From an uncultured Gemmatimonadales bacterium (lineage in GTDB: Bacteria > Gemmatimonadota > Gemmatimonadetes > Longimicrobiales > Gaopeijiaceae), in assembly GCA_963809895.1 (NCBI GenBank), contig CAWELD010000003.1, positions 1,024,001-1,088,000 of the forward strand: 64,000 nucleotides of DNA, in the 5' to 3' direction. The translations under genes were made by a program, and so were the position numbers. Shown one piece after another: positions 700 through 19,525 of this stretch; the first letter of the stretch is position 1; the number at the start of each line of letters is the position of its first letter. The notes beneath the pieces are model-generated. The model did not search any database. It saw only the letters and a program-made list of their open reading frames with translations, and was not told where the DNA came from.

Positions 700-739
700 C
701 GTCGCGGCTGCGGCGAACCAACACACCAAGGAGAGACCC

Positions 740-2704
740 ATGATCGGGAATCACTGGACGAGCCGGACGGCCCGTCGGCTCCTGGCGGCGGCCGCGGCGG
801 CGATGCTGGCCGCGTGCACCGGGCAGGGCGGCGACGGAGCCGGCGGTGCCTCGGTTCAAGACCTCATGAGGACCCGGAACCTCAGCGAAGCCGACGTCGT
901 GGCGGCGCTCAAGACGTACACGCCGACCGGTCGCACCGACCCCTTCGTGATGTTCGCCTCGGGCGGCCACAGCGGTCAGGTGCTGGTGATCGGCGTCCCC
1001 TCGATGCGGATCCTCAAGTACATCGGCGTCTTCACGCCCGAGCCCTGGCAAGGCTACGGCTTCGACGACCAGACCCGGGAGCTCATGACCGCGAGCTCGC
1101 CGGCGGGCAAGTCCCTCACCTGGGGCGACAGCCACCATCCGGCGCTCAGCGAGACCAACGGCGACTACGACGGGCAGTTCCTCTTCATCAACGACAAGGC
1201 GAACGCCCGCATCGCGGTCGTCAGCCTGAAGGACTTCGTGACCACGCAGATCGTGCACTCACCGATCCTGGGCACGGACCACGGCGGCAGCTTCGTCACG
1301 CCCAACACCGAATACGTCATCGAGGGTGGGCAGTACCCGGTGCCGCTCGACGGCAGCTATCAACCCATCTCGAGCTTCGACGACACGTACCGCGGAGCGG
1401 TCATGTTCTGGAAGTTCGACCGCGACAGCGGCCGTATCGACCCTTCGCAGTCCTTTGCCCTGGAGCTGCCGCCCTACATGCAGGACCTCTCCGACGCGGG
1501 CAAGCTCGTGAGTGACGGCTGGGCGTTCATCAACTCGTTCGACACCGAGCGCGCGCACGGTGGCAACGCGGAGGGTCAGCCCCCGCTCGAGTCGGGCGCG
1601 TCGCAGAACGACATGGACTACCTGCACGTCATCAACTGGCGAAAGGCCGCCGACGTGGCCACCGAGCCCGGGAAGACGCGCACGATCCGCGGCGTGCGGG
1701 TGATCCCGCTCTCCACGGCGGTCGACGAGGGCCTGCTCTACTTCGTGCCCGAGCCCAAGAGCCCGCACGGTGTCGACGTGACCCCGGACGGACAGTACAT
1801 GGCCATCTCGGGCAAGCTCGACACGCACGAGACGGTCTACTCGTGGGCCAAGATCAAGCAGGCGATCGACGACGGCGACTTCGAGGGCAACGACCCCTAC
1901 GGCGTGCCGATCATCGGCTTCCAGACCGCGCTGCACGGCCAGGTCGAGCTCGGCCTGGGACCGCTCCACACCCAGTGGGACGACCAGGGCAACGGCTACA
2001 CGTCGCTCTTCATCGAGTCGAAGATCGCGAAGTGGTCGCTGCAGGACATGGCGCTCGTGGAGAAGATCCCGGTGCACTACAACATCGGCCACCTCGCCAC
2101 GCCCGAAGGCGACACCCAGCACCCGAAGGGCCAGTACGTGATCGCGCTCGACAAATGGTCGATCGACCGCTTCAACAACGTCGGGCCGCTCATGCCGCAG
2201 AACATGCAGCTAATCGACGCCAGCACATCGCCGATGCAAATGCTGTACGACCTGCCCATCGGCCTGGGTGAGCCGCACTACGCGCAGATCATCAGCGCGG
2301 ACAAGCTCGATCCCCAGCAGATGTACAGCCCGGTCGGCGAGAACCAGGTCACGCACCAGCACGACCCCAACGCCGTGACGTCCGAAGCGGACGCTCGGGT
2401 GGAGCGCCACGGGCGCTCGGTGGACGTCTACATGACGGCGGTGCGCAGCCACTTCACGCCGGACCGCGTGGAGGTGAACCGGGGCGACACGGTGCACTTC
2501 CATCTGACCAACCTCGAGCAGACGCCGGACGCCACGCACGGGTTCGGCCTGGGCGAGTACGACGTGAACCTGAGCCTCGAGCCCGGGAAGACCGCCGACG
2601 TCACGATCGTGGCCGACAAGACCGGTGTCTTCCCCTACTACTGCACCGAGTTCTGCTCGGCGCTGCACCTCGAGATGATGGGCTACATGCTCGTCAAGCC
2701 ATGA
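740..2704 (+). CDS. nosZ: Nitrous oxide reductase, clade II (Sec/lipoprotein type)
   Basis: SGGHSGQ, DSHH, PKSPHG, GPLH, GEPH CuZ motifs; C-terminal CuA motif CTEFCSALHLEM; LAAC lipobox rather than a Tat consensus. Confidence 0.97.
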   Translation: MIGNHWTSRTARRLLAAAAAAMLAACTGQGGDGAGGASVQDLMRTRNLSEADVVAALKTYTPTGRTDPFVMFASGGHSGQVLVIGVPSMRILKYIGVFTPEPWQGYGFDDQTRELMTASSPAGKSLTWGDSHHPALSETNGDYDGQFLFINDKANARIAVVSLKDFVTTQIVHSPILGTDHGGSFVTPNTEYVIEGGQYPVPLDGSYQPISSFDDTYRGAVMFWKFDRDSGRIDPSQSFALELPPYMQDLSDAGKLVSDGWAFINSFDTERAHGGNAEGQPPLESGASQNDMDYLHVINWRKAADVATEPGKTRTIRGVRVIPLSTAVDEGLLYFVPEPKSPHGVDVTPDGQYMAISGKLDTHETVYSWAKIKQAIDDGDFEGNDPYGVPIIGFQTALHGQVELGLGPLHTQWDDQGNGYTSLFIESKIAKWSLQDMALVEKIPVHYNIGHLATPEGDTQHPKGQYVIALDKWSIDRFNNVGPLMPQNMQLIDASTSPMQMLYDLPIGLGEPHYAQIISADKLDPQQMYSPVGENQVTHQHDPNAVTSEADARVERHGRSVDVYMTAVRSHFTPDRVEVNRGDTVHFHLTNLEQTPDATHGFGLGEYDVNLSLEPGKTADVTIVADKTGVFPYYCTEFCSALHLEMMGYMLVKP

Positions 2705-4053
2705 CCACCGCCGTGCCGAGAAGCCACAGGATCGCCAGGATCGGCGTGGCCCTCGCGGTCGCGTGTGTGCTGATCGCGGCACGGCGAACCGGTACGTCTC
2801 CGGCGGCGCCCGACCGGTCTCCGGTCGCGGCGCCTGCCGGCGGCCATGAAGCGGCCTGCCCTGCCGACGGCGTGCGGGTCCCGGCCGACACCCCCCTTCA
2901 ACCCCTCGTCGACTCCACGGCGGCCGGCACGGTGCTCTGCCTCGCGCCCGGCCACTACGAGGGCCCCCTCGAGATCCACAGGTCCCTCACGCTGCAGGGT
3001 CCGGCGACGGCGGTACTCGCCTCCGACGGCCAGGGCACCACGCTCCGCCTGCTGGCCGACAGCGCGGCGATCGAGGGATTCACGGTGGAAGGAAGCGGAC
3101 GGCGCTACGACAAGATGGACGCGGCCGTCTACCTGAAGGGACGAGCCCTCACGGTCCGGAACCTCACGGTGCGGGACGCATTGTTCGGCATCGTGGTCGA
3201 GCAATCGGAAGGCGTGACCATCGCCGCCAACCAGGTGTTCGGCCTGGCGGATCTGCCGGTGGGCGTGCGCGGAGACGGCATCCGCCTCTGGGAGGTGCGC
3301 CACTCCCTGATCGTCGGGAACCACCTGGAGGACTCGAGAGACATCCTGGTGTGGTACTCGCCGGGCAACCGGATCACCCACAACACGGTGGTCGGCAGCC
3401 GGTACGCCACCCACTTCATGTACTCGGACGACTGCGTGGTGGACAGCGCCGACTACCGGCAGAACATCGTGGGCGTGTTCGTGATGTACTCGCGCGGTGT
3501 CACCCTCGTCGGCAACACCATCGCGGACAACGCCGTGGCCGACGGCATGGGGCTGGGCGTGAAGGAATCCGGCAATCTGACGGTGGTGGACAACCGCTTC
3601 GTCCACGACCACGACTGCCTCTACCTCGATACCTCCCCGTTCCGTAAGGGCGACACCGTGCTGGTGCACGGCAACACCTTCGCGCGCTGCGACGCGGCCG
3701 TGACGTTCCACTCGAGCGAGCGGCACAACACCTTCACGGACAACGCCTTCCAGGACAACCAGATCCACGTGGCCGTGGAGGGCCGCGGCACGGCGCGCGA
3801 CGTGGTCTGGGAGGGCAACTACTTCGACGACTACCAGGGCTACGACCTGGACGGTGACGGGCGGGGTGACGTGGCCTACGAGCTACGCAGCCTCTCCGAG
3901 CAGCTCGTACAGGGCCATCCCCGCCTGGCGTTCTTCAGGGGGACCATCGCGCTCGCGTTGCTCGACGTGGCCGCGCGCGTGTTCCCCCTGCTTCAGCCCG
4001 AGACCCTTCTGGTGGACCCACAGCCTCGCATGGCCCCTCCGGGTGCCGTGTGA
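2701..4053 (+). CDS. nosD: NosD copper-maturation beta-helix protein
   Basis: RGDGIRLW, RYATHFMYS, GNYFDDYQGYDLDGDGRGD motifs; ATGA overlap with nosZ. Confidence 0.93.
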   Translation: MTTAVPRSHRIARIGVALAVACVLIAARRTGTSPAAPDRSPVAAPAGGHEAACPADGVRVPADTPLQPLVDSTAAGTVLCLAPGHYEGPLEIHRSLTLQGPATAVLASDGQGTTLRLLADSAAIEGFTVEGSGRRYDKMDAAVYLKGRALTVRNLTVRDALFGIVVEQSEGVTIAANQVFGLADLPVGVRGDGIRLWEVRHSLIVGNHLEDSRDILVWYSPGNRITHNTVVGSRYATHFMYSDDCVVDSADYRQNIVGVFVMYSRGVTLVGNTIADNAVADGMGLGVKESGNLTVVDNRFVHDHDCLYLDTSPFRKGDTVLVHGNTFARCDAAVTFHSSERHNTFTDNAFQDNQIHVAVEGRGTARDVVWEGNYFDDYQGYDLDGDGRGDVAYELRSLSEQLVQGHPRLAFFRGTIALALLDVAARVFPLLQPETLLVDPQPRMAPPGAV

Positions 4054-4072
4054 GCGGAGGCGAGAGAGGACG

Positions 4073-4834
4073 ATGCGCGTAGAGCTGCGTGACGTGACCA
4101 AGCGCTTCGGGGGTGTGCGGGCGCTCGAGTCGGTCTCCCTGGACGTCGCCGCGGGCGACCGCGTCGCCCTGGTCGGCCCGAACGGGTCGGGCAAGTCGAC
4201 GCTCGTGCGCGCCATCATGGGCATCGTACACTGCGAGGGCACCGTTCGACTGGACGGGCTCGATCCCTTCGAGCACCGCACCCGACTCGCCGCGCGCCTC
4301 GCCTACGTGCCGCAGATCGCCCCGCAGCTCGGCGCCACCGTGGGTGAGGTGGCCCGGGCCGTGGCGACACTGCGCGGCCTCGACCCGGCCGACATCCGAA
4401 GCACGGCCGCGGAGATCGATCTGGACCTGGATGCGCTCGGGCGGAGGCCGGTCCGCACGCTCTCCGGGGGAATGAAGCAGAAGCTGCTCATCAGCCTGGC
4501 GTTCGCGGCTCCAGTGTCCCTGCTGATCCTGGACGAGCCCACGGCCAGTCTGGACAAACAGGCCCGGGAGGCGTTCTTCCGGCTCTTCGAGGAACGCGCC
4601 GAGGGCGCCACCCTCCTGCTCTGTTCGCACCGGCTCGACGAGGTGCGTCGGCTGGTGGGCCGCGTGGCCGCCGTCGAAGACGGACGCCTGGTGCTGGACG
4701 CATCGGTGTCGGCGCCGGAAGTGGCCGAACGGCTCCACCACGGAGCGTGGTGGCAGGAGGTGCGCGACGTGGCCCGCCGGGAGAAGCCGAGGTTCCCCGA
4801 CGAGCGGGCGCTGGCCGCCGGAGGGTACGCGTGA
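4073..4834 (+). CDS. nosF: ABC transporter ATPase NosF
   Basis: GPNGSGKS, LSGGMKQK, LILDEP; position in nos operon. Confidence 0.88.
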   Translation: MRVELRDVTKRFGGVRALESVSLDVAAGDRVALVGPNGSGKSTLVRAIMGIVHCEGTVRLDGLDPFEHRTRLAARLAYVPQIAPQLGATVGEVARAVATLRGLDPADIRSTAAEIDLDLDALGRRPVRTLSGGMKQKLLISLAFAAPVSLLILDEPTASLDKQAREAFFRLFEERAEGATLLLCSHRLDEVRRLVGRVAAVEDGRLVLDASVSAPEVAERLHHGAWWQEVRDVARREKPRFPDERALAAGGYA

Positions 4835-5727
4835 GCGCCCGGACGGCGGCGGCCGGGACACCGCTGGATGGCGCGGCCGTGCCGATTCCCGAGCGCTGGC
4901 AGCGCCTGGCCGCACTGGCTCGCCTCGAGCTCGGCGAGGTGCTGCGCTCGCGGTGGCTCCTGTTCTGCGCGGGGCTGTACGCCGCGCTCGCGGCGCTCTT
5001 CATCGTGGTCGGGCTGCGCGAGTCCGGCGTGATGGGCTTCACGGGCATGTCGCGCGTGCTGCTCTCGCTCAGCCATGCGCTGGTGGTCCTCCTGCCCCTG
5101 CTGGCGCTGACCGGGACCGGGCAGGTGGTGAGTCGGGCGCGTCGGGACGGCACCCTGGAGCTTCTGTTCAGCCAGCCGGTCACGCGCGCGGACTACTTCG
5201 GCGCGGTCACCATGGTGCGCTACGGCGCCCTCTTCGTGCCGCTGCTCGTGCTGATGCCCACCCTGGCCGTCGTCGGATCGCTCGTGTTCGGGCAACCGGT
5301 GCCCTGGGCCTTCCTGGCCCGCGCGCTCACGGTCAGCGCCGCCCTGCTCTGGAGCTTCACGGGCATCGGGCTCGCCATCTCCACCCGGGTGAGCGAGCCC
5401 GATCGCGCCATGATGTACCTGCTCCTCGCATGGGTGCTGGGCGTGGCCCTGCTCGATTTCGGGCTCGTGGGGCTGATGCTGCAGTGGGACCTGCCGGCTG
5501 CCGCCGTGTTCGCGCTGGCCGGCCTCAACCCGGTGGAGATGGCCCGCCTGGCGCTGCTCTCGGGGGCCGAACCCTCGCTCGGTACGCTGGGACCGGTAGG
5601 ATTCTGGATGTCTGGCCGCCTCGGTTCAGCATGGCTCTTCGCGGCCGGTGTGCTCTGGCCGCTGCTGGTCGGCTCGGGCGCATGGTGGATGGCCCGGCGG
5701 CGGCTGTCGACGGGCGATCTGGTGTGA
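4831..5727 (+). CDS. nosY: ABC-2 permease NosY
   Basis: Multi-TM protein with GTLELLFSQPVTR and LNPV motifs; GTGA overlap with nosF. Confidence 0.85.
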   Translation: MSARTAAAGTPLDGAAVPIPERWQRLAALARLELGEVLRSRWLLFCAGLYAALAALFIVVGLRESGVMGFTGMSRVLLSLSHALVVLLPLLALTGTGQVVSRARRDGTLELLFSQPVTRADYFGAVTMVRYGALFVPLLVLMPTLAVVGSLVFGQPVPWAFLARALTVSAALLWSFTGIGLAISTRVSEPDRAMMYLLLAWVLGVALLDFGLVGLMLQWDLPAAAVFALAGLNPVEMARLALLSGAEPSLGTLGPVGFWMSGRLGSAWLFAAGVLWPLLVGSGAWWMARRRLSTGDLV

Positions 5728-5793
5728 CGACGAAGACCTGGACGGATGCGGCGAACGACGGGCCTCGATACGGGCCCATGGAGGGATAGAACG

Positions 5794-6450
5794 GTGACGC
5801 TGGAAAACAAACTGCGGCCCCTGGTGGACCGCTTCGAGGAGTTCCTGGACGAGCCGATCCGGTTTCGCAGCCGGATCCTGCTGGCGCTGTTGGTGATTCC
5901 GCTCGTGCTCAGCTTCACGCAGCCGCTCTGGCGCATCAGCATGGAGGCGCCACAGTACCCACAGGGGCTGCACATGGACGTGTACGCCTACAAGCTGAGC
6001 GGCGGGCACGACGGGCACGACATCGCCGAGATCAACGAGCTCAACCACTACATCGGGATGCGCAGGATCGAGCGGGCCCAGTTCCAGGACCTGGACTGGA
6101 TCCCGTTCGCGCTCGGGCTCCTGACCATCCTCACGCTGAGGGCCGCCGCCATCGGCAAGGTGCGCTCGCTCATCGACCTGAGCGTGATGACGCTCTACAT
6201 CGGCGCGTTCTCCATGGCCCGCTTCGTCTACAAGCTCTGGGTGTTCGGCCACGACCTCGATCCGCGCGCGCCCGTGAACATCAAGCCCTTCATGCCAGTG
6301 GTGGTGGGCACGAAACAGGTCGCCAACTTCACTACCCACTCCTGGCCGAACTGGGGCACGGCGCTCATGTCGACCTTTGCGGTGGGCGTCCTGGGGATCG
6401 CGGTCTGGCACTGCTGGGTGGGCTACCGGGAGGCCTGGGTAAAACGGTAG
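5794..6450 (+). CDS. nosB: NosB-like membrane protein of clade II nos clusters
   Basis: PLWRISMEAPQYPQGL, INELNHYIGM, FGHDLDPRAP, GTKQVANF motifs. Confidence 0.8.
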   Translation: MTLENKLRPLVDRFEEFLDEPIRFRSRILLALLVIPLVLSFTQPLWRISMEAPQYPQGLHMDVYAYKLSGGHDGHDIAEINELNHYIGMRRIERAQFQDLDWIPFALGLLTILTLRAAAIGKVRSLIDLSVMTLYIGAFSMARFVYKLWVFGHDLDPRAPVNIKPFMPVVVGTKQVANFTTHSWPNWGTALMSTFAVGVLGIAVWHCWVGYREAWVKR

Positions 6451-6499
6451 CCCGAGCCACCGAGGCAGGCGCCGGCAGGGTGACCCGAGCGCCGCTCGC

Positions 6500-7267
6500 C
6501 TACGTGCGCCAGGCTATGGAGGCCACCGCGTAGTGCAGCCAGGCGAAGTTGTACACGGATTCGACATCGGCGCCACCTTCCACCGTGCGGTAGCCCGCTC
6601 GGACCGACCACCGACGGCCCAGGTCGTAGCCCAGCTTCAGTGACGCGTCGATGGCACGCCCCGGCCCACCCGCGAGGCCGTCGGCGTCGAGGGAGAGGCG
6701 CCATCGCGTGCCGAAGCGCCGATCCCCCGCCAGATGGAGCAGAGGCACGAAGCCGACATCGTCCTTTCGACTGCGCGTGGAGCTCTGAGCCAAGGCGATC
6801 GACGCGTCCCGCACCTTGGCCGTGAATCCGACCCAGGCCGCCGATCGCTCGCTCGAATGGAAGCGCCACCGGTACGACGCGCGGTAGGAGTTGAAGGTAT
6901 AGGTGGCTTCGACCGGCACGCTTCCGACGTACCTCTGCCCCGCGAAATCGACCGGCCGGGACAGCGTACCGCGCTCCGTCACCGACAGGGGCGCGTACAG
7001 CAGGCGCACCTCGTGGCGTTCCGACAGGTGCCACGTCAGGTAGATCCGGCCGACCGCCCACGGGCCGGCGCCCACGAGGTCCGAGAGCGAGAACCGGGTG
7101 GCAGTGCCGTCGTTGGGGATCTCGACGTCGTTGCGGGTCTGCCAGGCCAGCCCACCCTCCACCTCGAGCGACAACGAGAACGTCTGAGCGGCGACCACCC
7201 CCGGAAGGAACGCCCACATCAGGCCCAGCCCCACGGCACCGCGGAAGCCGCTCAGCCATGCTCTCAC
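6500..7267 (-). CDS. Putative outer-membrane beta-barrel protein
   Basis: Signal peptide, alternating aromatic beta-strand pattern, W near C-terminus; start uncertain. Confidence 0.6.
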   Translation of the reverse strand: MRAWLSGFRGAVGLGLMWAFLPGVVAAQTFSLSLEVEGGLAWQTRNDVEIPNDGTATRFSLSDLVGAGPWAVGRIYLTWHLSERHEVRLLYAPLSVTERGTLSRPVDFAGQRYVGSVPVEATYTFNSYRASYRWRFHSSERSAAWVGFTAKVRDASIALAQSSTRSRKDDVGFVPLLHLAGDRRFGTRWRLSLDADGLAGGPGRAIDASLKLGYDLGRRWSVRAGYRTVEGGADVESVYNFAWLHYAVASIAWRT

Positions 7268-7311
7268 AAGGGCCTCCGGTTCCTTCGCAAGTTATTCGGA
7301 CAACAAGATAA

Positions 7312-7385
<74 letters not shown>

Positions 7386-8080
7386 GGATGCTATGAACAC
7401 GTCTAGCGCAATTACCTCGATTCCTGGCACGATTTGAGCTGTAGAACTCCGTGCGCTGCTGGGGCGCATATCGGGCACAAGCGCTGGCCAGCTTCACTCC
7501 GAGTCCCTCTCGACCTCGTCCACGAGGTCCCGCGATCTGACCGTGTAGCCCTCGACCACGCAGATCCTGATGTCCGGACGCACGTTCATCGGCGGGAGCT
7601 GATCGGAAGCCCATCGTACAAAGGCACCCGGCTCAAGTCCATTGGAGACGGCGGCCGGAACTCCGAGCGTCAGACGGTACCTGCGTAGCGGCACGGGTCG
7701 GACCTCCCCGTCCTGAGGGTCCACAGGGTCCTGAAGGGGAACGCGAGGGAATCTCTCATACCTTCCCCCCGTCGGGAACCCCCAGTGGCCTATTCCACTG
7801 CTCGCGACCGACCCCATCTCCTACTGACGCGCATCTGCAAGAACCCGAGGACGGCGAGGTCGCCTCTCGTCGAAGGGCAATCCGAGGACTGTGGGTGGTG
7901 GTCGGTCACCTGTTTCCCCTGCCCGAGGACTGCGAAAGCTCCGCCTTCCGCGCCGCCAAGCGGGTGACCGATGGATGTCGCGACCAAGACACTGTGGCGA
8001 TCGGCGCAGACCGGCCTGAGCGGCTCGAGGGCCCTGCGATGTGGAGGGTGCGAGGGACTAGCCAACGGGCAGATCCCGAG

Positions 8081-8173
8081 CCTCGAATGACACGAGCCTG
8101 GCAAGGCCGCAAAGCCTTGCGGGCTCGTCTCAATCCAGAGCGGGCGACCGCGCTCAAACCTGCGACCCGCAGC
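8081..8173. repeat. Degenerate copy of the tRNA-Gly att core plus the element-side hairpin
   Basis: 8134-8173 matches 46024-46063 at 36/40; 8092-8118 matches 45980-46006 at 26/27. Confidence 0.85.
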
Positions 8174-8252
8174 ATATGCTTGCGGGAATCCTGCCTCGGC
8201 AGTAGATAGCGGATAGGCTGGCCTATCCCACGGTGGCGGCAGCGCACCCATC

Positions 8253-8825
8253 ATGATCGTACCCCACGACGGCGACGTGGACCTCTTCGAGCAGTTCTAC
8301 CGGGACTGGTGGGAGAAGGTGAGGAGCACGGCGAGGACCTTGCTCGGGTCGGATGACGAGGCGCAGAATGCGGCACAACGCGTATTCGCACGCGTCTGGC
8401 GCACCGGTGCATGGAGGACCATCGAACGGCCTGGGGACTTCTTCCACAGGGCGGCCGTGAACGAGGCCTTGAGCATACAGCGGCGGCAGACGCGAGCCGA
8501 CAAGTTCAGCCGTCAACTCGCCAGGGTGGATCCTCTCGTTCCCGAGAGTCCCGACGCGCCGCTGATCCGTCACGAGCGACGCGCGATACTCGAACAGATG
8601 ATCGAGCGATTGCCCCACCGCTGTGGTATCATCTGCCGACTCGTGTACCTGCACGAGTTGACGCACAGCGAGGCGGCGCGCGCGCTGGGGATATCTGTAG
8701 GCGCCGTCGAGAAACAAGTGGCTCGGGCCCGCCGCAGCCTTCGGAGCCTGGCCGGAGAACCGCGTGATGCTGTGTCACCTATTGAGGTCGGGGGGGGGGG
8801 TGGAGGGGGTTCGCACGTCTCATAG
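8253..8825 (+). CDS. ECF-type RNA polymerase sigma-70 factor
   Basis: Region 2-like FEQFYR..DEAQNAAQRVF..RAAVNEAL; region 4 LPHRC..EAARALGISVGAVEKQVARAR. Confidence 0.85.
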   Translation: MIVPHDGDVDLFEQFYRDWWEKVRSTARTLLGSDDEAQNAAQRVFARVWRTGAWRTIERPGDFFHRAAVNEALSIQRRQTRADKFSRQLARVDPLVPESPDAPLIRHERRAILEQMIERLPHRCGIICRLVYLHELTHSEAARALGISVGAVEKQVARARRSLRSLAGEPRDAVSPIEVGGGGGGGSHVS

Positions 8826-8925
8826 GGTGAACTGCGGATCACGAATGTGTCCGCGCTTGGCCCCCATGGAGAGCGTGTGGGATCGTGGGGCGCCACCACC
8901 CTGTCCCTGTCGATGGAGGGATCCG

Positions 8926-9171
8926 ATGAACATCCTCAAGTCCGCTCGTGTGAGACTTCTCCTCGTCGCGAACGCGATCGCCTTTGCGTTCATGTTCGCC
9001 AGCGCCGCATCAGTGCGAGCCGACGGCGAAGGATGGGAGACCTTCTGTCCGCCGACGGTCGAGGGGTGCGACTGTGGCCCGGAGATACCCTTCTCCCCGG
9101 CTGGCTGTTACGACAACGGTGGGGATATCATCCTCTGCTCGTCGAACGCGTACTGCACCAACCCTGAATAG
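8926..9171 (+). CDS. Secreted Cys-rich peptide (81 aa; 49-aa mature part with 6 Cys)
   Basis: GGAGGG RBS; Sec signal ending ASVRA; mature DGEGWETFCPPTVEGCDCGPEIPFSPAGCYDNGGDIILCSSNAYCTNPE. Confidence 0.8.
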   Translation: MNILKSARVRLLLVANAIAFAFMFASAASVRADGEGWETFCPPTVEGCDCGPEIPFSPAGCYDNGGDIILCSSNAYCTNPE

Positions 9172-9180
9172 CCGAGGAAC

Positions 9181-9212
9181 GCGTGGCACCCCGCGAGAGT
9201 GGGGTGCCACGC
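9181..9212 (+). other. 14-bp GNRA-loop hairpin after the peptide gene (no U-tract; mRNA stability or attenuation element)
   Basis: GCGTGGCACCCCGC-GAGA-GTGGGGTGCCACGC. Confidence 0.7.
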
Positions 9213-9340
9213 ACGGCAACCCGCCCATCTTCGCGCGGCGGGGAAGCGCGCGACCAGTCACCAGCCCCCGGTGTCCGATCGGCTCTGGCAAGTCCGAAGA
9301 GCACGTTGGACTCCGCAGTCGCTATCGGAGGCCATGCCCA

Positions 9341-10567
9341 ATGCCCGTCTCGAAATGCACCGTCTCGCTCGCGCTGCTGGGCTGTCTGGCCGGTGGCGTC
9401 ATGGGCGGGTGTGCGGACGTCGACCCACCGTCCGCGGCCATCGTGACAACAGACACGATCAACCGTGTCGTTCACGTGGCCAACCACGGGAGCGGGGCAT
9501 GGACTCCTGAGACGGCCTGGCGGGTGCGCGAGGTCTTCCGCCTGGGTGGCAGAGCGGAGCCGGCTGAACAGCTCTTCACGAGCCAACTCCTGGGCGCGGG
9601 TATCGGTCCTCGCGGAGATGTCTACGTGCTCGACCATCTGGCCGGCTTCATCTCGGTCTTTGGGGTAGATGGTCGGCTGATTCGAACCATCGGGCGGCGC
9701 GGCAGGGGGCCCTCCGACCTGGCCGCACCTACGGGTTTCACGTGGAGTGACGACGGGCATCTGTGGGTGTCCGATCCCGGAAACCGGAAGTACGCCGTGT
9801 TCGACACCACGGGAGCCCTGGTCGGCACCCACCTGCGCTCGGTTCAGGGATATCCCAGACGCCAGTACCCGTTGGTGTACGATTCGCAGGTTGGAATCAT
9901 CGATGAGGCTGCCTGGAGGGGGAGCCTGGTCCTCCTCCGGACCACCGTCGACGGGGAAGTCCACGACACGCTGATGATCATCGACCGCACCGGAAGCCCG
10001 TCTCAGGCGATGATGGATGCCTATGCACGGCTTCGCGGCCGTCCCGGGCCAGAGCTTGCGCGGGTAAATCAGTTCTACTCAAACCGAATGAAATGGGCGC
10101 TCGACCCCTCTGGAGGAATCTGGACAGGCTCACCAGCGGAACTCCGCTTCGTCAAGCGTGGCTGGAATGGTGACACGCTTCTGGTGGTCACGGCGGACCA
10201 TCGAGACGCAGAGCTCACGCCCGAAGATGAGCAGTTGATCTCGACTGCCATGCGCCAGGGCGACCTCACTCGTGACGAGATCAATCCGATCCGCCCACTC
10301 TTTCAGGCACTTCACGTGATCGAAGGCGGCTATCTGCTCGTGCAATTGGTGGATACGCCTGGCGTCGCTTCGCCTCGTTTTGACGTCTACGATCCGGCGG
10401 GCCGCTACCTTGGCGAATTGGACCTCGGATTCGCCCCCGACCGTTTGGGGACTCTGGGGGGTCGCGGCGACCTGATCGTCGCGCCGATGCTCGGAGACCT
10501 TGATGTGCCCTACGTCGTGGGCGTCGAAGTGATCCGTCCTTCTGCGGGGGCGTCCGGTCGCCCATGA
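9341..10567 (+). CDS. 6-bladed (NHL-like) beta-propeller lipoprotein
   Basis: Lipobox-like MGGC; VYVLD..ISVFGVDGRLIRTIGRRGRGP; FDVYDPAGRYLG near C-terminus. Confidence 0.8.
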   Translation: MPVSKCTVSLALLGCLAGGVMGGCADVDPPSAAIVTTDTINRVVHVANHGSGAWTPETAWRVREVFRLGGRAEPAEQLFTSQLLGAGIGPRGDVYVLDHLAGFISVFGVDGRLIRTIGRRGRGPSDLAAPTGFTWSDDGHLWVSDPGNRKYAVFDTTGALVGTHLRSVQGYPRRQYPLVYDSQVGIIDEAAWRGSLVLLRTTVDGEVHDTLMIIDRTGSPSQAMMDAYARLRGRPGPELARVNQFYSNRMKWALDPSGGIWTGSPAELRFVKRGWNGDTLLVVTADHRDAELTPEDEQLISTAMRQGDLTRDEINPIRPLFQALHVIEGGYLLVQLVDTPGVASPRFDVYDPAGRYLGELDLGFAPDRLGTLGGRGDLIVAPMLGDLDVPYVVGVEVIRPSAGASGRP

Positions 10568-11229
10568 CTCACTCCACGAGGAGCCACCGCAACTGGACCG
10601 AACGGCTTACCACTGTTCTTCTGGGCGTCAGCCTCGTCGCGGTCGTAGCCGTGTGGGTCGCCCGCCGGCCGGTGCGACCGCGGGTCATCCCGCCGATGGC
10701 CGTGTACAGTTCTGCCGTTTCCGATAGCGTCTGGGACGCGCTTGTCCAAGGCGGCCATACGACTGGAGATCGGGATGCGAGCGACACCTTGGTCGTCTTC
10801 TCCGACTACGAATGTCCGATCTGCAGGGCGGTAGCTCCGCGGCTCGACAGCCTACTGCTTCTACGGCCTCACCTCGCCGTCCTGCATCGCCACTTTCCCC
10901 TTCCAACCCATCCTCATGCGTTCGAGGAAGCACTCGCTGTTGAGTGTGCCGGTCGATTGGGCAAGCTCGCTGAAGGCCAGAAGGCCATGTACGCCAGGGG
11001 CGGCACTGCGGTAGATCCGACGGATGTGGCCAGGCAGTTGGGGATTGCGTGGGCTAGCTTCGACGAGTGCTGGCAAGGGGCGGACGCGCGCTCAGCTGTG
11101 GAGGCTGACTTTGCTCTCGCCATCGACCTGGCGCTGCCCGGCACCCCAAGCGTCTTCTTCTCGGGGCAGCGCTGGAGTCACTTCCCGGATCTTCAGCAGC
11201 TCCTCCAGTTGACCGAACCGGCAGGATGA
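10564..11229 (+). CDS. DsbA-family thioredoxin-fold oxidoreductase, membrane-anchored
   Basis: FSDYECPIC, HRHFPL, GTPS cis-Pro loop; N-terminal TM; ATGA overlap. Confidence 0.88.
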   Translation: MTHSTRSHRNWTERLTTVLLGVSLVAVVAVWVARRPVRPRVIPPMAVYSSAVSDSVWDALVQGGHTTGDRDASDTLVVFSDYECPICRAVAPRLDSLLLLRPHLAVLHRHFPLPTHPHAFEEALAVECAGRLGKLAEGQKAMYARGGTAVDPTDVARQLGIAWASFDECWQGADARSAVEADFALAIDLALPGTPSVFFSGQRWSHFPDLQQLLQLTEPAG

Positions 11230-11245
11230 GGGCAAGCGGGCTCGA

Positions 11246-11430
11246 GAGGATCCGCCGGCGCTCGCGTTGCGTGCTCTCCGCCGCCACGCAGGACCTCCTC
11301 GGCCAGGCTGAGGGCCGGGTGGCTTCCGAGCTTCTGGCGCCGGTGCGTGGGGGCACCGAATCTGTCGCAAGTTGTGAAACCGAACGAAACGCCCCGGAAC
11401 GACAATAGCCCCGGGACGTGGCTTGTTGCA
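11246..11430 (-). pseudogene. Possible remnant of an integrase arm-DNA-binding domain
   Basis: PGL...RRQKLGSHPALSLAE...DP resembles the P4-type integrase N-terminal LGxYPxxSLAEA..DP motif. Confidence 0.35.
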
Positions 11431-11470
11431 GCGATGTCTTGGGATGTGGCGGAACGCCGGCGCCTCAGGC

Positions 11471-12106
11471 CTACAGCACCCACTTCACCACCAGGAATCC
11501 CAACACGAGCAGGATCCCGAAGGCGATGCTCAGCAGGTTGAACCAGCGATCGATGAAGGCCGCGATGGGCTTGCCGTAGCGGTGAATGAGCCCGGCCACG
11601 ACGAAGAAGCGCAGACCGCGGCTCACGATGCTCGCCACGAAGAACACCGGAAAGGAGATGGCGAACACGCCCGACGACAGCGTGAACACCTTGTACGGGA
11701 TCGGGGTGAGCCCGGCCAGGAAGACGGCCCAGAAATCGTACTTCGTGTAGAGGCTACCCACCGTGGCGAACGACTCCGGTGTCACGCCGGGCACATGGGC
11801 GAAGAACCATTCGCCCACGACGCTCCAGGCGCCCGCCCCGAGCCAGTAGCCCACGATGCCGCCCAGCACCGACGCGCCCGTGGCCACCGCGGCGAAACGG
11901 AACGACCGCTTGGGCTTGCCCAGGCACAGGGCCATGAGAAGCGGATCGGGCGGGATGGGAAAGACCGACGACTCGGCCACCGACAGCAGGAAGAGCGCCG
12001 GCGCTCCGTAGGGTGTATCGGCCCAGTGCAGGACCCAGTCGTAGAGCCGCCTCAGGAACCCTGGCCTGCGCTCCCGGGCGTGGGTGGTGGCCGCGGCGTC
12101 GGTCAC
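11471..12106 (-). CDS. YqaA/DedA (VTT domain) membrane protein
   Basis: AESSVFPIPPD, GLTPIPYKVF, SRGLRF motifs. Confidence 0.88.
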   Translation of the reverse strand: MTDAAATTHARERRPGFLRRLYDWVLHWADTPYGAPALFLLSVAESSVFPIPPDPLLMALCLGKPKRSFRFAAVATGASVLGGIVGYWLGAGAWSVVGEWFFAHVPGVTPESFATVGSLYTKYDFWAVFLAGLTPIPYKVFTLSSGVFAISFPVFFVASIVSRGLRFFVVAGLIHRYGKPIAAFIDRWFNLLSIAFGILLVLGFLVVKWVL

Positions 12107-12783
12107 TCGCCGGGCTCCGGATGGAACGCGAATCGCCCCAGCAGGGGCACGAAGCGGCACTCGCCCTCGAGGGGCTCCTCGGTGACGATGCCCTCCTGCT
12201 TGCGCGCCAGGATCAGCTCCTGCCGCTCGCGGGTGCCCACGGGGATGAGGAGTCGCCCGCCCTCGGCGAGCTGATCGGTGAGCGCCGGTGGAATCGACGG
12301 CGACGCGGCGGACACCACGATGACATCGAAGGGCGCGTACTTGCGCCAGCCGATGGTCCCGTCCCCCACCATGAGCGCGGCGTTGCGGATCTCCAACTCG
12401 TCCAGCGCCTTGCGAGCGCGGGCCGACAGCTCGCGCACCCGCTCCACCGAGTACACGCGGTCGGCGGTGCGAGCGAGCAGCGCGGTCAGGAACCCGCTCC
12501 CGGTTCCGATCTCCAGCACCTTCTCGTCACGCTGGGGCTCGAGCACCGAGAGGTAGTACGCCTGCAGCGAGGGCTGCGACGCGGTCTGGCCGAAGCCGAT
12601 GGGCACGGGCGCGTCCTCGTACGCCCGGGGCCAGACGCCCTCGGGCAGGAAGAGGTGGCGCGGCACCTCGTCGAAGAGGCGCAGGATCTCGAGATCGTCG
12701 ATCCCCCGCTCGCGGATTTCCTCGATGAGCCGGCGGCGCTGGCCCACGAAGCGGTTGCCTCCGGGAATGTCCAGCGGCGTCAT
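12103..12783 (-). CDS. pcm: Protein-L-isoaspartate O-methyltransferase
   Basis: VPRHLF, IGFGQTASQP, VLEIGTGSGF, FVPL; adjacent to surE. Confidence 0.95.
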   Translation of the reverse strand: MTPLDIPGGNRFVGQRRRLIEEIRERGIDDLEILRLFDEVPRHLFLPEGVWPRAYEDAPVPIGFGQTASQPSLQAYYLSVLEPQRDEKVLEIGTGSGFLTALLARTADRVYSVERVRELSARARKALDELEIRNAALMVGDGTIGWRKYAPFDVIVVSAASPSIPPALTDQLAEGGRLLIPVGTRERQELILARKQEGIVTEEPLEGECRFVPLLGRFAFHPEPGE

Positions 12784-13532
12784 CCGAGGTCCAGCCCCCA
12801 GCCACGGATGCTCTCCATGAGCTGGTAGTTGGTGAGATCCAGATGCAGCGGGGTCACCGAGATGAAGCCCTCTTCCACAGCGCGGAAATCCGAGTCCGAG
12901 GGGCCGCTCCACGCCGTCGAGCCGCCGCCGATCCAGAAGTACTCGCGTCCCGAGGGATCCTTGGCCCGGGTCAACGAATCCCGATACCGCCGCCGACCCA
13001 GCGAAGTCACGCGCACCCCCTTCACGTCGCCCGCCGGCACCGCCGGCAGGTTCACGCTCAACAGCGTGTTCTCGGGGAATTCCCCCTGGTCCAGGAGCGA
13101 GCGCAGGAGGCTGGTGATCACCGGCTCCCAGCCCTCCAGCTCTTCGTGGTGATCCCCGGTGTAGGACAGGGCGATGGAGGGAATCCCCAGGACCGTGGCC
13201 TCCATGGCCGCGGCCACCGTGCCCGAATAGAGCACGTCCTCGCCCATGTTGGATCCATGGTTGATGCCCGACAGCACCACGTCGGGCCGGCCGTCGAGAA
13301 GCTCGCCCAGCGCCAGGATCACGCAGTCAGTGGGGGTGCCGTCGACGAACATGGTGCCGTCGGCGGCACGGCGCGCGCGTAGCGGATGATGCAGCGTCAG
13401 GGAATGACTCGTGGCGCTCTGTTCCCGGTCCGGCGCCACGATGGTCACGTCGCCCAGCTCGCGAGCCGCGCGCGCCAGCACGCTCAGCCCCTGGGCCAGG
13501 TAGCCGTCGTCGTTGGTACAGAGGATCTGCAT
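12780..13532 (-). CDS. surE: 5'/3'-nucleotidase SurE
   Basis: TNDDG, DGTPTDCV, SGINHGSNMG, YSGTVAAA. Confidence 0.96.
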   Translation of the reverse strand: MQILCTNDDGYLAQGLSVLARAARELGDVTIVAPDREQSATSHSLTLHHPLRARRAADGTMFVDGTPTDCVILALGELLDGRPDVVLSGINHGSNMGEDVLYSGTVAAAMEATVLGIPSIALSYTGDHHEELEGWEPVITSLLRSLLDQGEFPENTLLSVNLPAVPAGDVKGVRVTSLGRRRYRDSLTRAKDPSGREYFWIGGGSTAWSGPSDSDFRAVEEGFISVTPLHLDLTNYQLMESIRGWGLDLG

Positions 13533-13540
13533 GGGTGCGG

Positions 13541-13942
13541 CTAGTCGTCGTCTTCGGCGGGGGGCACGGTCAGCAGCTCCATGAGGGACTGCAATTCCGA
13601 CTTCATGGTGGCCAGGAACTCGGGCTCCAGCACCACCTGGCGCTCCTCTTCCAGGTCCCCCTCGCGGCGCAGGTCCAGGAGCCGCTGACGGGCGCCCTCG
13701 ATGGTGAATTTCTCGTCGTAGAGCAGGTGCTTCACCAGCAGCACGACCTCGATGTCCTTGGGTCGATACACCCGGTTGCCCGCCCGGTTCTTGTTGGGGT
13801 GCAGGACCTCGAACTGGGTCTCCCAGTAGCGCAGGACGTGAGGCTTGAGGCCCGTGAGATCGCACACCTCGCCGATGGAGTAGTAGGCCTTGCGTGCGAT
13901 GGGCTCAGCCAGGCCCGCGTCGTCCAGATCCATCTGCGTCAT
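13541..13942 (-). CDS. MerR-family HTH regulator
   Basis: YYSIGEV..LKPHVLRYWETQF..GNRVY..FTIEGAR. Confidence 0.9.
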   Translation of the reverse strand: MTQMDLDDAGLAEPIARKAYYSIGEVCDLTGLKPHVLRYWETQFEVLHPNKNRAGNRVYRPKDIEVVLLVKHLLYDEKFTIEGARQRLLDLRREGDLEEERQVVLEPEFLATMKSELQSLMELLTVPPAEDDD

Positions 13943-14949
13943 GACCATTCCTCCGGCTTGGGCTCCCGGGACATCAGGTTCTCCAGCGCCTCTCTGGGCC
14001 GTCGGCCCTCCGACAGCATGGCGTGGACCTCCGCGGTGATGGGCATCTCCACTCCGTGGCGGGCGGCGAGCTCGCGCACCGCCTGGGTCGTCTTCACGCC
14101 TTCGGCCACGGCCCGCATGTCGTGCAGGATCTCGTCCAGCGTCTCACCCTGGCCCAGCCGAAATCCCACGGTACGGTTGCGGCTCAATTCGCCGGTGCAG
14201 GTGAGCACCAGGTCGCCCATGCCCGCCAGCCCCGAGAAGGTCTCCCTGCGGGCGCCCATGGCGATGCCCAGACGGGTGATCTCCGCCAGGCCCCGTGTGA
14301 TGAGCGCAGCCCGGGTATTGTGGCCGAAGCCCAGGCCCGCCGCCACACCGGCGGCCAACGCGATCACGTTCTTGAGGGCTCCCCCCAGCTCCACGCCGAT
14401 CACGTCGGGGTTCGTGTAGACCCGGAAGAAGCGGTTCTGGAAGGCCGCTTGCACCTGACGGGCCGCGTCCGGATCGTGGCTGGCGGCCACCACGGCGGTG
14501 GGCAGCTCGCGCGCCACCTCCACGGCGAAGCTCGGCCCCGAGATGACGCTGAAGCGCGCCATCTGGTCCGGCGACAGGAACTCCTCCATGACCTGATCCA
14601 TGCGGCGGAGCGACCGGATCTCGATCCCCTTCGATGCGCTCAGCACCAGGGCGTCGTCACGCACATGGGGCATGGCCCGGGCCGCCACGTCGGCCACGAA
14701 CTGGGCCGGCACCACGGACACCACCAGCTCGGCGGGCGCCACGGCCTCGGCGAGATCGTCGGTAGCGTGCAGGTCCGGCAGGTCCACGTCGGGCAGATAG
14801 ATGTCGTTGCGGTGACGCGCGAGCACCGAGCGCACCACCTCCGCCTCCAATGCCCACAGCGTGACCTCGTGGCCGTTCTTGGCCAGGACGCTGGCCAGGG
14901 CCGTCCCCCAGCTTCCCGCTCCCACCACCGCCGTACGCATGCCGCTCAC
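13939..14949 (-). CDS. gpsA: NAD(P)H-dependent glycerol-3-phosphate dehydrogenase
   Basis: GAGSWGTALA, SGPSFA, GGALKNVIA, GDLVLTC, SRNR. Confidence 0.96.
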   Translation of the reverse strand: MSGMRTAVVGAGSWGTALASVLAKNGHEVTLWALEAEVVRSVLARHRNDIYLPDVDLPDLHATDDLAEAVAPAELVVSVVPAQFVADVAARAMPHVRDDALVLSASKGIEIRSLRRMDQVMEEFLSPDQMARFSVISGPSFAVEVARELPTAVVAASHDPDAARQVQAAFQNRFFRVYTNPDVIGVELGGALKNVIALAAGVAAGLGFGHNTRAALITRGLAEITRLGIAMGARRETFSGLAGMGDLVLTCTGELSRNRTVGFRLGQGETLDEILHDMRAVAEGVKTTQAVRELAARHGVEMPITAEVHAMLSEGRRPREALENLMSREPKPEEWS

Positions 14950-15551
14950 GAGCTCGCCCTCCCGAATCGATTCTCCTCACCCCGCAGCAGACGTCTCACG
15001 TTGGCCCGGTGCGCCCAGACCACGAACAGCGCCAGCGCCACGGTGAACCAGATCAGCGCCCGCCCTCCCGCGTGGGGCGTGAAGATCACCGCCACCGGCA
15101 GTGCCACGGCCGCCGCGATGGAGCCCAGCGACACGATGCGCGTCGTGAGCACCAGCGCGACGAAGACCACGAATCCCACCAGCACGGCCCACGGCGCCAG
15201 CGCCAGGAAGACCCCGGCGCTCGTGGCCACGCCCTTGCCTCCCCGGAAGCGAACCCACACGGAGAACACGTGGCCGACGATGGCTGCGGTCCCGAAGGCC
15301 AGGGTCCATCCGAAGGTCGGCTTCACCAGGAGCGAGGCGAACAGCCAGGTGGGCAACCACCCTTTGAACACGTCGAAGAGCATGACGGGCAGCGCCGCCT
15401 TCCAGCCCAGCTCCCGGAAGGTGTTGGTGGCGCCCAGGTTGCCGCTCCCGCGGGTCCTCAGATCGACCCCGTAGACCCCCCTCCCCACCAGGTAGCTCGT
15501 GGGCACGGCGCCCAGGAGATACGACACGGCCAGGAGGAGGACCGGGTTCAC
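14946..15551 (-). CDS. plsY: Glycerol-3-phosphate acyltransferase PlsY
   Basis: GSGNLGATN, FRGGKGVAT, HRANVRRL..GEE. Confidence 0.95.
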   Translation of the reverse strand: MNPVLLLAVSYLLGAVPTSYLVGRGVYGVDLRTRGSGNLGATNTFRELGWKAALPVMLFDVFKGWLPTWLFASLLVKPTFGWTLAFGTAAIVGHVFSVWVRFRGGKGVATSAGVFLALAPWAVLVGFVVFVALVLTTRIVSLGSIAAAVALPVAVIFTPHAGGRALIWFTVALALFVVWAHRANVRRLLRGEENRFGRASS

Positions 15552-16867
15552 GAAGAGCTCGACTCCCGCAGAAAGATCCGAAGCGGGGTCCCCGAGAAGC
15601 CCCACCGCTTCCGGAAGGTGTTGTGGATGTAGCGAATGTAGTGATCCGGCACCGCCTTCGGGAAGTTCGAGAACACCACGAAGGTGGGCGGCGCCACCGA
15701 GACCTGGGTCGCGTAGCGTAGCTTCACCTGCCGGCCACGCGAGTGGGGCGGCGGCTGGTGAGCCACCACCTCCGCCAAGGCCTCGTTGACCTCGTGGGTC
15801 TCCACCCGCCGATGCCGCTGATCCTGCACCTCGAGCACCAGGTCCAGCGCCTTGCGCACCCGCTGGCCGGTGAGCGCCGAGGCGAACAGGAAGGGCACCC
15901 ACTGCAGGAAGGGCGCCCGATCGACCGCGGCCCTCACGAAGGCCCCCGCCGTGGCTTCGTCCTTCTCCACCAGGTCCCACTTGTTGACCACCACCACGAG
16001 GCCCGCCCCGGCCTCCCAGGCGTGCTCCATGACGCGCAGGTCCTGCACGGTGATGCCCTCGGTGGCGTCCACGAGGGTCAGACACACGTCGGCCTCGCGC
16101 ACCACGCGATCGGTACGGAGCGCGCTGTAGTACTCCAGCGAGTCCTTCACCTTCGACTGCCGACGGAGGCCCGCCGTGTCCACGAAGACCAGCGAACGGC
16201 CGTGGTAGGTCATGAGCGAGTCCACCGGGTCGCGCGTGGTGCCCGCGATCTCGCTCACCACGACCCGCTCCTCGCCGAACAGCCGGTTCACCAGCGACGA
16301 CTTGCCCACGTTGGGCTTTCCCACGACCGCCACACGGATCGTCGACGGATCGGGCTCCTCCACCGGCCCCTCGGGCAGCTCCGCCACGATGCGGTCCAGC
16401 AGGTCGCCCGAGCCCTTGCCCGACGCCGCGCTCACCGGCTGCGGCTCGCCCAGGCCCAGCTCCCAGAACTCGTGGTGCGCGAGCTCCCGGGGCAGGTTGT
16501 CCTGCTTGTTCACCGCCAGCACCACGGGCTTGTCGGCCCGGCGCAGGATGTCGGCCAGGCGGGCGTCCAGCGGGTGGAGGCCCTGCTTGCCGTCCACCAC
16601 GAGCACCAGGACGTCGGCCTCCTGGATCGCCATGAGGGCCTGCTCGCGCACGGCCCGGTCCAGGGGCACGTCCGAGTCCTCGATGACGCCCCCGGTGTCC
16701 ACGATGAAGAACTGCCGCCCCGCCCAGTCGGCACGGGCGAAGTTGCGGTCGCGGGTCACGCCGGGACGGTCGTCGACGATGGCCACCCGGCTCCCGAGCA
16801 CGCGGTTGAACAGGGTGGACTTGCCCACGTTGGGGCGGCCTACCACGGCCACGACGGGTAGCGTCAC
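15548..16867 (-). CDS. der: Ribosome biogenesis GTPase Der
   Basis: Two G domains (GRPNVGKS, GKPNVGKS), KH-like C-terminus. Confidence 0.97.
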   Translation of the reverse strand: MTLPVVAVVGRPNVGKSTLFNRVLGSRVAIVDDRPGVTRDRNFARADWAGRQFFIVDTGGVIEDSDVPLDRAVREQALMAIQEADVLVLVVDGKQGLHPLDARLADILRRADKPVVLAVNKQDNLPRELAHHEFWELGLGEPQPVSAASGKGSGDLLDRIVAELPEGPVEEPDPSTIRVAVVGKPNVGKSSLVNRLFGEERVVVSEIAGTTRDPVDSLMTYHGRSLVFVDTAGLRRQSKVKDSLEYYSALRTDRVVREADVCLTLVDATEGITVQDLRVMEHAWEAGAGLVVVVNKWDLVEKDEATAGAFVRAAVDRAPFLQWVPFLFASALTGQRVRKALDLVLEVQDQRHRRVETHEVNEALAEVVAHQPPPHSRGRQVKLRYATQVSVAPPTFVVFSNFPKAVPDHYIRYIHNTFRKRWGFSGTPLRIFLRESSSS

Positions 16868-19524: not shown

Positions 19525-19525
19525 T

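Follow-up and report, generated by a model that had tools for sequence, protein, structure and literature searches.

The window analysed here is a stretch of 64,000 nucleotides from the genome (G000) of an uncultured Gemmatimonadales bacterium (assembly GCA_963809895.1, contig CAWELD010000003.1, positions 1,024,001 to 1,088,000). It carries a cassette of four co-oriented open reading frames (ORFs), all on the + strand (8253..11229), that encode an extracytoplasmic function (ECF) sigma factor, a short peptide with six cysteines, a propeller lipoprotein and a DsbA-family oxidoreductase (Table 1); all four lie where an initial annotation of the sequence had placed them. The anatomy of these genes, together with a strong association of their relatives at other loci, makes it highly probable that the cassette is a production line, in which a mini-protein would be made under its own sigma factor, exported by a predicted Sec route and folded through disulfides by the adjacent enzyme. 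The small protein would most likely be a weapon or a signal that the propeller binds.

Table 1. Positions of the cassette genes, of associated and neighbouring features, and of related precursors elsewhere
Feature	Position	Strand	Remarks
ECF sigma factor, anti-sigma-less clade, nearest TIGR02985	8253..8825	+	Sigma70_r4_2 E 3e-11
Precursor of predicted secreted 6-Cys mini-protein	8926..9171	+	81 aa; signal 1-32, mature 33-81
DUF5128-like NHL-type beta-propeller, predicted lipoprotein	9341..10567	+	408 aa; lipobox-like Cys
Membrane-anchored DsbA-family thiol-disulfide oxidoreductase	10564..11229	+	CPIC, GTP (T-Pro loop), N-terminal hydrophobic anchor
Promoter-like DNA element in sigma 3' end	8772..8826	+	Motif common to sigma-clade loci
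14-bp GC-rich hairpin behind peptide stop	9181..9212	+	Perfect stem, -33 kcal/mol, no U-tract
tRNA-Arg(CCT)	7312..7385	-	Left landmark of inserted region; context, outside cassette
Second precursor type	G000:C10:521146, C10:1008328, C10:1009723, C3:661338, C8:20811; L164:1444-1920		
Second precursor type, apparently broken copies	G000:C3:3080780, C3:3681639		

A Conserved Six-Cysteine Peptide

The peptide gene has a GGAGG sequence 6 nt ahead of its ATG. Its product begins with a signal composed of a K/R-bearing N-region, a hydrophobic core and V-R-A at residues 30-32, and the mature part of 49 residues contains six Cys and nine Asp/Glu with no Lys or Arg (net charge -9); these features agree with the Sec signal and the acidic six-Cys mature part that the initial annotation had described for the 81-residue product.

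A single-sequence search with the peptide returned only the peptide itself. A homologue with 27% identity (pairwise E 6e-10) was found beside a propeller relative in genome G176, and a two-row profile searched against a library of 1.84 billion cluster-representative proteins gave 40 matches, 37 of them short, and short homologues other than the peptide itself number 36 at E<=0.001; the family set excludes three long repeat proteins, and one match, of the P0026 type, may be close kin of the seed. An alignment of 39 rows shows no variation at Asn16 or in five of the Cys columns; the sixth Cys is present in 38 members, and a P-x-G-C-Y motif is almost constant amid variable loops. The number of Cys is always even (six in 32 members, eight in six and ten in one), the mature parts are acidic in 38 of 39 (median charge -9), and Ala occupies the predicted cleavage position in 30. 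With 39 aligned members and near-invariant Cys, the ORF is conserved, and on sequence evidence the peptide is a member of a conserved, unnamed gene family, beyond what a chance ORF would give.

The invariant Asn lies in the signal helix (39 of 39 members) and recurs there in all 45 rows of an alignment of related eight-Cys peptides, compared with 2 of 126 hydrophobic helices of ordinary signals in this genome; part of this apparent conservation may come from the Asn-bearing rows used to seed the profiles.

The mature domain is confidently modelled as compact: AlphaFold, given the 39-row alignment, predicts a small beta-hairpin and a short helix, with a pLDDT of about 86-94 over residues 41-80. 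Fold searches with the whole precursor model gave no match in Foldseek, and the rows returned by VIA-align span the signal helix only (Z<=2.5). The peptide profile has no sequence match in the PDB, the family members gave nothing beyond single weak rows in Pfam and NCBIfam, and no metallothionein family was matched by any of the 39.

A Wider Peptide Set and Its Partner Genes

The two-row profile also matched eight-Cys peptides in genome G206 (E 1e-8), and a seven-row profile gave 135 matches in 65 of the 314 genomes of the host family; across the phylum 24 of 401 genomes were matched, nearly all of them from the same family. The six-Cys type itself was found among the 314 family genomes only in this genome and in G176 (39-row profile). 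Most eight-Cys peptides have a CC-CC-CC-C-C framework and the same signal-helix Asn. In a search of 64,303 ORFs with a profile of eight-Cys peptides only, the window's peptide came third (E 1.9), and with a profile of the leader only it came second of 10,303 (E 0.046); by sequence the link between the six-Cys and eight-Cys families is weak, and it rests on the two-row profile match, the Asn leader and common neighbours. Atlas searches with both peptide types gave only unnamed clusters below 0.9, which are leads at most.

Forty-nine peptide loci were examined as DNA; the peptide was found again in 48 (L129 was dropped), and three seed loci were set aside, leaving 45. A thioredoxin-fold gene lies within 1.5 kb of the peptide at 38 of these, compared with 0 of 120 random 3.2-kb windows drawn from 11 of the same genomes, and a propeller lies within that distance at 26 of 45, compared with 8 of 120. 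Either partner is present at 41 loci and both are present at 23; when the distance is widened to 5 kb, a propeller appears at 13 of the 19 loci that have none at 1.5 kb, compared with 5 of 40 control windows. This neighbourhood survey upholds the association of propellers with Cys-rich peptides that the initial annotation had foreseen. All four gene types of the cassette occur together again in genome G184 and, in another gene order, in G048.

The association extends to other peptides of this genome. Among 13 small ORFs with a Shine-Dalgarno sequence, a signal and at least four Cys, 11 have a propeller-like ORF no more than 2 kb away, a proximity that applies to 8.3% of the genome, and nine are co-oriented with a propeller less than 300 bp away; several unrelated Cys frameworks are represented. 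A search of metagenomes with a propeller profile yielded 25 loci, four of which carry Cys peptides (one with a DsbA gene and one with three tandem peptides). No radical SAM/SPASM maturase was found beside the peptide here or at 24 other loci scanned.

Several related arrangements were observed. Three tandem six-Cys peptides stand beside a propeller in one metagenome locus (L044:5736-6500) and two tandem Asn-leader peptides in another (L043:2256-2711). At L087 (G206:C265:300-7900), two tandem eight-Cys peptides, a propeller and a TlpA-like gene adjoin three ORFs that we take to be integrase-like. A second precursor type, found directly beside propellers (Table 1), has a signal and a six-Cys domain, after which come a linker and an extension at the C-terminus that bears a seventh Cys.

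The Oxidoreductase

The start of the DsbA-like gene overlaps the stop of the propeller gene (ATGA), and its product carries a CPIC motif, in accordance with the translationally coupled CxxC oxidoreductase proposed earlier. The protein scores above the cut-off of two Pfam families, DSBA (E 5e-13, 49.8 bits) and Thioredoxin_4 (44.9 bits). Its nearest solved relatives are 4n30, a protein disulfide isomerase (E 2e-8), and 3gyk, to which it aligns over residues 66-210 with the GTP motif included; chains of the ScsC-type copper-resistance proteins match more weakly. The type of partner varies by locus, being DsbA-like here and at some other loci and TlpA/AhpC-like elsewhere. The genome also encodes two VKOR proteins, two DsbB proteins and two other Thioredoxin_4 proteins, so the cassette copy is an extra one, as a dedicated folding enzyme would be.

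The Sigma Factor and a DNA Element in Its Gene

The sigma factor belongs to the module. Its best NCBIfam match is TIGR02985 (E 4e-24), with 85.8 bits against a cut-off of 126.4, and we tentatively take it to be FecI-like, or ECF240-like. Twelve other homologues were found at E<=1e-15 in the 20 genus genomes searched; eight of them have a propeller within 1.5 kb and five a Cys peptide. The cassette contains no ORF of a size suitable for an anti-sigma factor, as had been noted at the outset, and two ORFs upstream of the sigma gene have no Pfam match.

The 3' end of the sigma gene contains a promoter-like element directly ahead of the peptide gene. It consists of an imperfect GTCC-N8-GGAC palindrome and a run of 11 G followed, after about 16 nt, by TCTCATA, a TCTATA-like box. 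An element of this kind is present at all 13 sigma-clade loci (a TGTCC-N8-GGAC type and 5-11 G, in many cases with a TCTATA-like box some 16 nt further on), and since it is translated in a different frame at two of them (L167 and L170) it is conserved as DNA. When the 5.3-Mb genome was scanned with a matrix made from ten foreign sites, none of them its own, four sites beside this sigma clade took the top four ranks; the element in the window is fourth (19.4 bits), and the best-ranked site directly precedes another Cys peptide. The element is likely to be the target promoter of the sigma factor, or an operator, for the peptide gene.

None of 54 other peptide loci has this motif, so the sigma factor is an optional regulator; a sigma regulon that spans the other peptide loci was rejected on this count. 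A sigma-like gene lies within 1.5 kb of the peptide at only six of the 45 loci. In two cassettes with no sigma gene the upstream position is taken by an AraC-type HTH gene (G176, L080:10344-11093) or by a regulator-like ORF (G079, L081:4317-5234).

Homologues differ in the length of the element's G-run (8790-8800 here), from 5 to 11 bases, which shifts the C-terminal frame of the sigma factor; slippage-based phase variation at this site is possible. A second cassette in the genome, L169 (G000:C3:3675537-3676958), has the closest paralogue of the sigma factor and an ORF resembling sigma region 4. The DNA element occurs twice in it, a secreted Cys peptide is also encoded, an insertion sequence comes next, and a propeller lies on the opposite strand.

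Behind the peptide gene, the strong hairpin reported in the initial annotation is present as a perfect 14-bp stem, and the stretch 9168-9340 has a folding z of -3.6; a terminator scan did not call the hairpin. It is a local feature: as a family trait it was rejected, with z<-2 behind 8 of 49 peptides compared with 7 of 60 random stretches. Here the hairpin is likely to stabilise the peptide mRNA or to damp read-through.

Insertion Site and Neighbouring Genes

The cassette fills the gap between a tRNA-Arg gene and a VTT-domain gene, with only its four genes between them. The GC content at third codon positions is 0.72-0.77 in the four cassette genes, compared with 0.87-0.94 in nine flanking genes. 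In G059, a genome of the same genus, the tRNA-Arg gene is about 1 kb from the VTT-domain gene, compared with 4.1 kb here; the other four genus loci with the VTT-domain gene have no tRNA in their 1.5-kb flanks or reach a contig edge. The deviating codon composition and the shorter interval in G059 point to an insertion, or a site of variable cargo, and the integrase-like ORFs beside the sister cassette L087 also fit mobile cargo; a tRNA-derived direct repeat was looked for at the locus and was not found.

Upstream of the cassette (2701-6450, + strand) lie genes for a NosD copper-binding protein, an ABC ATPase, an ABC-2 permease and a membrane protein, which resemble a nos-accessory operon and have native codon use; the ABC genes near the cassette are part of this operon, 2-5 kb away. 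The only radical SAM-like gene in positions 1-20000 of the window encodes a PDZ/DUF512 protein (16864-18225, - strand); it lies 5.6 kb off in a run with Der and GpsA, upstream of Der, and its strand, distance and context are unrelated to the cassette. The absence of a classical enzyme for peptides that ribosomes synthesise and that are modified after translation (RiPPs), as asserted earlier, holds for this part of the window.

The Propeller and Its Relatives

The propeller gene has GGAGG 9 nt ahead of its ATG. Its product matches DUF5128 (PF17170) at E 2e-4 with 21.2-22.2 bits, below the gathering cut-off of 22.9, and its close homologues P0005, P0009 and P0013 carry PF17170. The model (pLDDT 83) is closest to the six-bladed TRIM-NHL binding domains (Z 18-21); the Bacteroides structures 3s9j and 4raa reach Z 17, and DUF4221-type lipoproteins of Bacteroides fall within Z 15-17. 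SOQ1 (E 4e-4, Z 16), NHLRC2 (Z 15) and the peptide-amidating lyase PAL (Z 16.7) score no higher than many unrelated propellers, and no enzyme class is prominent.

This genome has 40 PF17170 matches, and propellers number from 40 to about 100 per genome. The subfamily of the window's propeller is present in 33 of the 314 family genomes, the six-Cys peptide in two, and the closest orthologues of the propeller are metagenomic. Two dense clusters (G000:C3:3164000-3360000 and C10:673000-735000) contain dozens of propeller-like ORFs, many of them broken; one VKOR gene lies inside the C3 cluster and one DsbB gene beside the C10 cluster.

Seen from the propeller, the association is much sparser. A peptide was found near 1 of 23 and 1 of 29 propeller relatives in two overlapping sets of short loci. 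Among the wide regions surveyed around the closest propellers (18, with L198, chosen for its peptide, excluded), 16 contain no peptide at all, the two peptides seen are not of the six-Cys type, and an oxidoreductase of the cassette's kind occurs in one. Some propeller/peptide pairs share the same longest-contig figure (P0005/P0029 with 3383 on three contigs each, P0010/P0067 with 8938, and P0022/P0066+P0068 with 3052), an indirect hint that suggests that the window's propeller clade travels with the six-Cys peptide.

Proposed Function

Within this production line we tentatively assign the mini-protein as an antagonistic effector and the propeller as its cognate binding or immunity lipoprotein. 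The sigma factor, with no anti-sigma factor alongside, would read the promoter-like element in the 3' end of its own gene, and the hairpin would tip the balance of mRNA towards the peptide and away from its partners. Cleavage after Ala32 would free the 49-residue acidic domain, and the signal-helix Asn may point to a further step, of recognition or processing, within the membrane. The membrane-anchored DsbA protein could oxidise or shuffle the six Cys into three disulfides and might itself be re-oxidised by the VKOR or DsbB proteins of the genome. The folded mini-protein would then act on related bacteria, with the propeller binding and neutralising it at the cell envelope; propellers with no peptide would act as orphan genes, for immunity or as decoys, against the variants of neighbours.

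Partners kept without a cognate effector are the pattern of orphan immunity genes. Peptides are nearly always accompanied by partners and propellers usually stand alone, which fits this pattern; that peptides need partners and propellers persist alone in numbers also argues against a pure maturation role and is consistent with the binding of outside ligands. We rank effector and immunity above signalling because the cassette contains no signalling output.

Several observations weigh against an effector with a cognate propeller. The closest propellers are mostly orphans, which counts against a fixed three-part system, and the orphans would be just as well explained by a general role as receptor or scavenger. 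A quick tree places the G176 propeller, which stands beside a six-Cys peptide, among 19 relatives that lack this peptide, with an orphan, not the window's propeller, as its sister; the peptide and propeller families therefore do not map one to one. Six of the 45 peptide loci have no propeller within 5 kb, three of them at or near contig ends and three (L203, L212 and L218) not. The mature peptides, with a median charge of -9, are strongly acidic, unlike membrane-lytic bacteriocins, and bacteroidetocin loci, as described in the main text of their report, have no immunity gene (PMC6671954). Most of the loci come from one genus, so that the neighbourhood counts are not independent and are to be read as description, not as a test of significance.

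It is rather unlikely that the mini-protein is instead a strain-specific signal or a means of kin recognition, for which the propeller would be the receptor, the orphans would listen to other strains and the sigma factor would close a feedback loop. Variable loops on a fixed Cys scaffold, the acidic and non-lytic character of the peptide, the ties of the sigma clade to peptide and propeller genes and the large propeller repertoires would all suit such a system. However, the propeller is a lipoprotein with no output domain, the cassette includes no kinase, anti-sigma factor or TonB receptor, the motif of the sigma factor is absent from the other peptide loci (0/54), and sigma-like genes are scarce near peptides (6/45).

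The coupling of the propeller and DsbA genes, and the resemblance of the propeller to SOQ1, NHLRC2 and PAL, recall a split NHLRC2/SOQ1-like enzyme in which the propeller would hold the peptide during oxidation or modification; in NHLRC2 a conserved cleft lies between the two domains, according to the available text of its description (PMC6107167). We regard such a maturation machine as improbable, because those three proteins rank no higher than many unrelated propellers, the active site is of the DsbA type (CPIC) and not CC(I/V)NC, and the partner alternates between DsbA-like and TlpA/AhpC-like proteins. Loci with a peptide and an oxidoreductase and no propeller also exist, and the closest propellers seldom have an oxidoreductase (1/18) or a peptide beside them, which weakens the earlier suggestion that the propeller is a dedicated chaperone or modifying enzyme.

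A periplasmic metal or redox buffer, in which the acidic Cys domain would bind copper or another metal, the oxidoreductase would control its thiols and the propeller would pass the metal on, is distinctly improbable. It would accommodate the charge of -9 with six Cys, the Cys-Cys pairs of the eight-Cys family, the ScsC-type proteins among the weaker PDB matches of the DsbA protein and the NosD-ABC operon upstream. The Cys counts, always even, and the compact model predicted with confidence speak for disulfides instead; many Cys frameworks occur with the same partners, no metallothionein family was matched, and the inserted cassette differs in codon use from the NosD operon.

Were the signal uncleaved, or cut at the Asn in the membrane, the peptide might be a minimal anti-sigma factor or sensor for the upstream sigma factor. 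Its gene holds the +1 position, that of the anti-sigma factor of FecI-like sigma factors, the anti-sigma factors of ECF241 are described as very short in the available text of PMC7826278, and the Asn is far more constant than in ordinary signals. Such a micro-sensor is very unlikely, since only about ten residues would be cytoplasmic, Ala is frequent at the predicted cleavage position, the conservation of the Asn may be inflated by the seed rows, most Asn-type peptides have no adjoining sigma gene, and the other peptides behind this sigma clade have no Asn.

That only the peptide and oxidoreductase form a functional pair, with the propeller a hitch-hiking island gene, would fit the abundance of propellers, the many orphans among close relatives and the propeller-less peptide loci, but is the least credible account, in view of the nine of 13 candidate peptides that are co-oriented with and close to a propeller, the coupling to the DsbA gene and the excess of propellers relative to random windows from these genomes, though such windows are no control for islands.

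Comparison with Known Systems

In the Bacteroidota, NVEALA (PF14055) small proteins stand beside DUF5128/TolB-like propeller lipoproteins, and the likeness pointed out in the initial annotation holds as an analogy of arrangement: in both cases a short secreted Cys protein precedes a six-bladed propeller lipoprotein, the fold of which resembles 4raa and 3s9j of Bacteroides. It does not extend to the peptide, which has a different leader and Cys framework, and PF14055 was matched by none of the 39 members (E<=0.1) and nowhere in the genome, a result to be read beside the 0 of 14 controls in which the model scored above cut-off. No description using the term NVEALA was found in the literature searched, so this comparison yields no function.

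Ranthipeptides, or SCIFF peptides, are six-cysteine RiPPs matured by radical SAM/SPASM enzymes. The short core with six Cys is similar, whereas the cassette employs a Sec-type signal and a periplasm-facing oxidoreductase and has no such maturase. Ranthipeptides have been named for Gaopeijiales (PMC11651109, main text).

In its best match, TIGR02985, a Bacteroidota sigma family, the sigma factor is akin to the FecI-like groups ECF239-243, and a further point of likeness is the conserved element in front of the +1 gene, at the 3' end of the sigma gene (PMC7826278). Unlike ECF240 and ECF243 as described there, the cassette has an 81-residue Cys peptide at +1, no FecR-like anti-sigma factor and no TonB receptor.

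NHLRC2 and SOQ1 join a thioredoxin-like domain with a CC(I/V)NC motif to an NHL propeller, and the available text reports no conserved operon for bacterial NHLRC2 homologues (PMC6107167). A thioredoxin fold and a six-bladed NHL propeller likewise stand side by side here, and SOQ1, as described there, is membrane-anchored and faces the lumen; the cassette differs in having two genes in different frames, in reverse order, with CPIC.

The functionally closest pairing, on the main text of the report concerned, is that of the bacteroidetocins (class IIf bacteriocins), in which a small Cys peptide is encoded beside its own thiol oxidoreductase, inferred by the authors to form its disulfides, as the cassette peptide adjoins its DsbA-like partner; they are a precedent for toxin peptides that come with a dedicated thiol oxidoreductase. 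Bacteroidetocins have a 15-residue double-glycine leader, an ABC peptidase-transporter and a five-transmembrane protein, and the word propeller does not occur in that main text (PMC6671954). The cassette, by contrast, has a 32-residue Sec-type signal ending in V-R-A, with no double-glycine leader in the family alignment, and no transporter; it has an acidic six-Cys core, a propeller lipoprotein and an ECF sigma factor.

At the level of titles and abstracts, with subscription journals and most supplements outside the scope of the search, no description of this system was found, and the main texts of two Gemmatimonadota genome papers (PMC10469786 and PMC11651109) contain neither propeller nor thioredoxin. 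Particular to this analysis are the six-Cys family, the Asn leader, the element in the sigma tail and the orphan asymmetry.

Taken together, and more speculatively, the sequences may represent a polymorphic class of disulfide mini-proteins, conotoxin-like in logic, with a conserved Asn leader, several Cys frameworks and hypervariable loops, which would have their own oxidoreductase, a cognate propeller drawn from a repertoire of up to hundreds per genome and an ECF sigma factor carrying its target promoter in its own gene. If so, the large expansions of DUF5128-type propellers would gain a function as an immunity or recognition repertoire; these genomes carry dozens to hundreds of propeller lipoproteins, and small, synthesisable ligands adjoin a subset of them, so the role of the propeller is directly testable. 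For experiments there are two concrete and cheap handles, the invariant Asn of the signal helix and the promoter-like element that lies within the sigma gene. Stable disulfide mini-proteins are known mostly from animal and plant sources; a large and diverse set in bacteria, made with dedicated folding enzymes, would supply new scaffolds and perhaps antibacterials of narrow spectrum.

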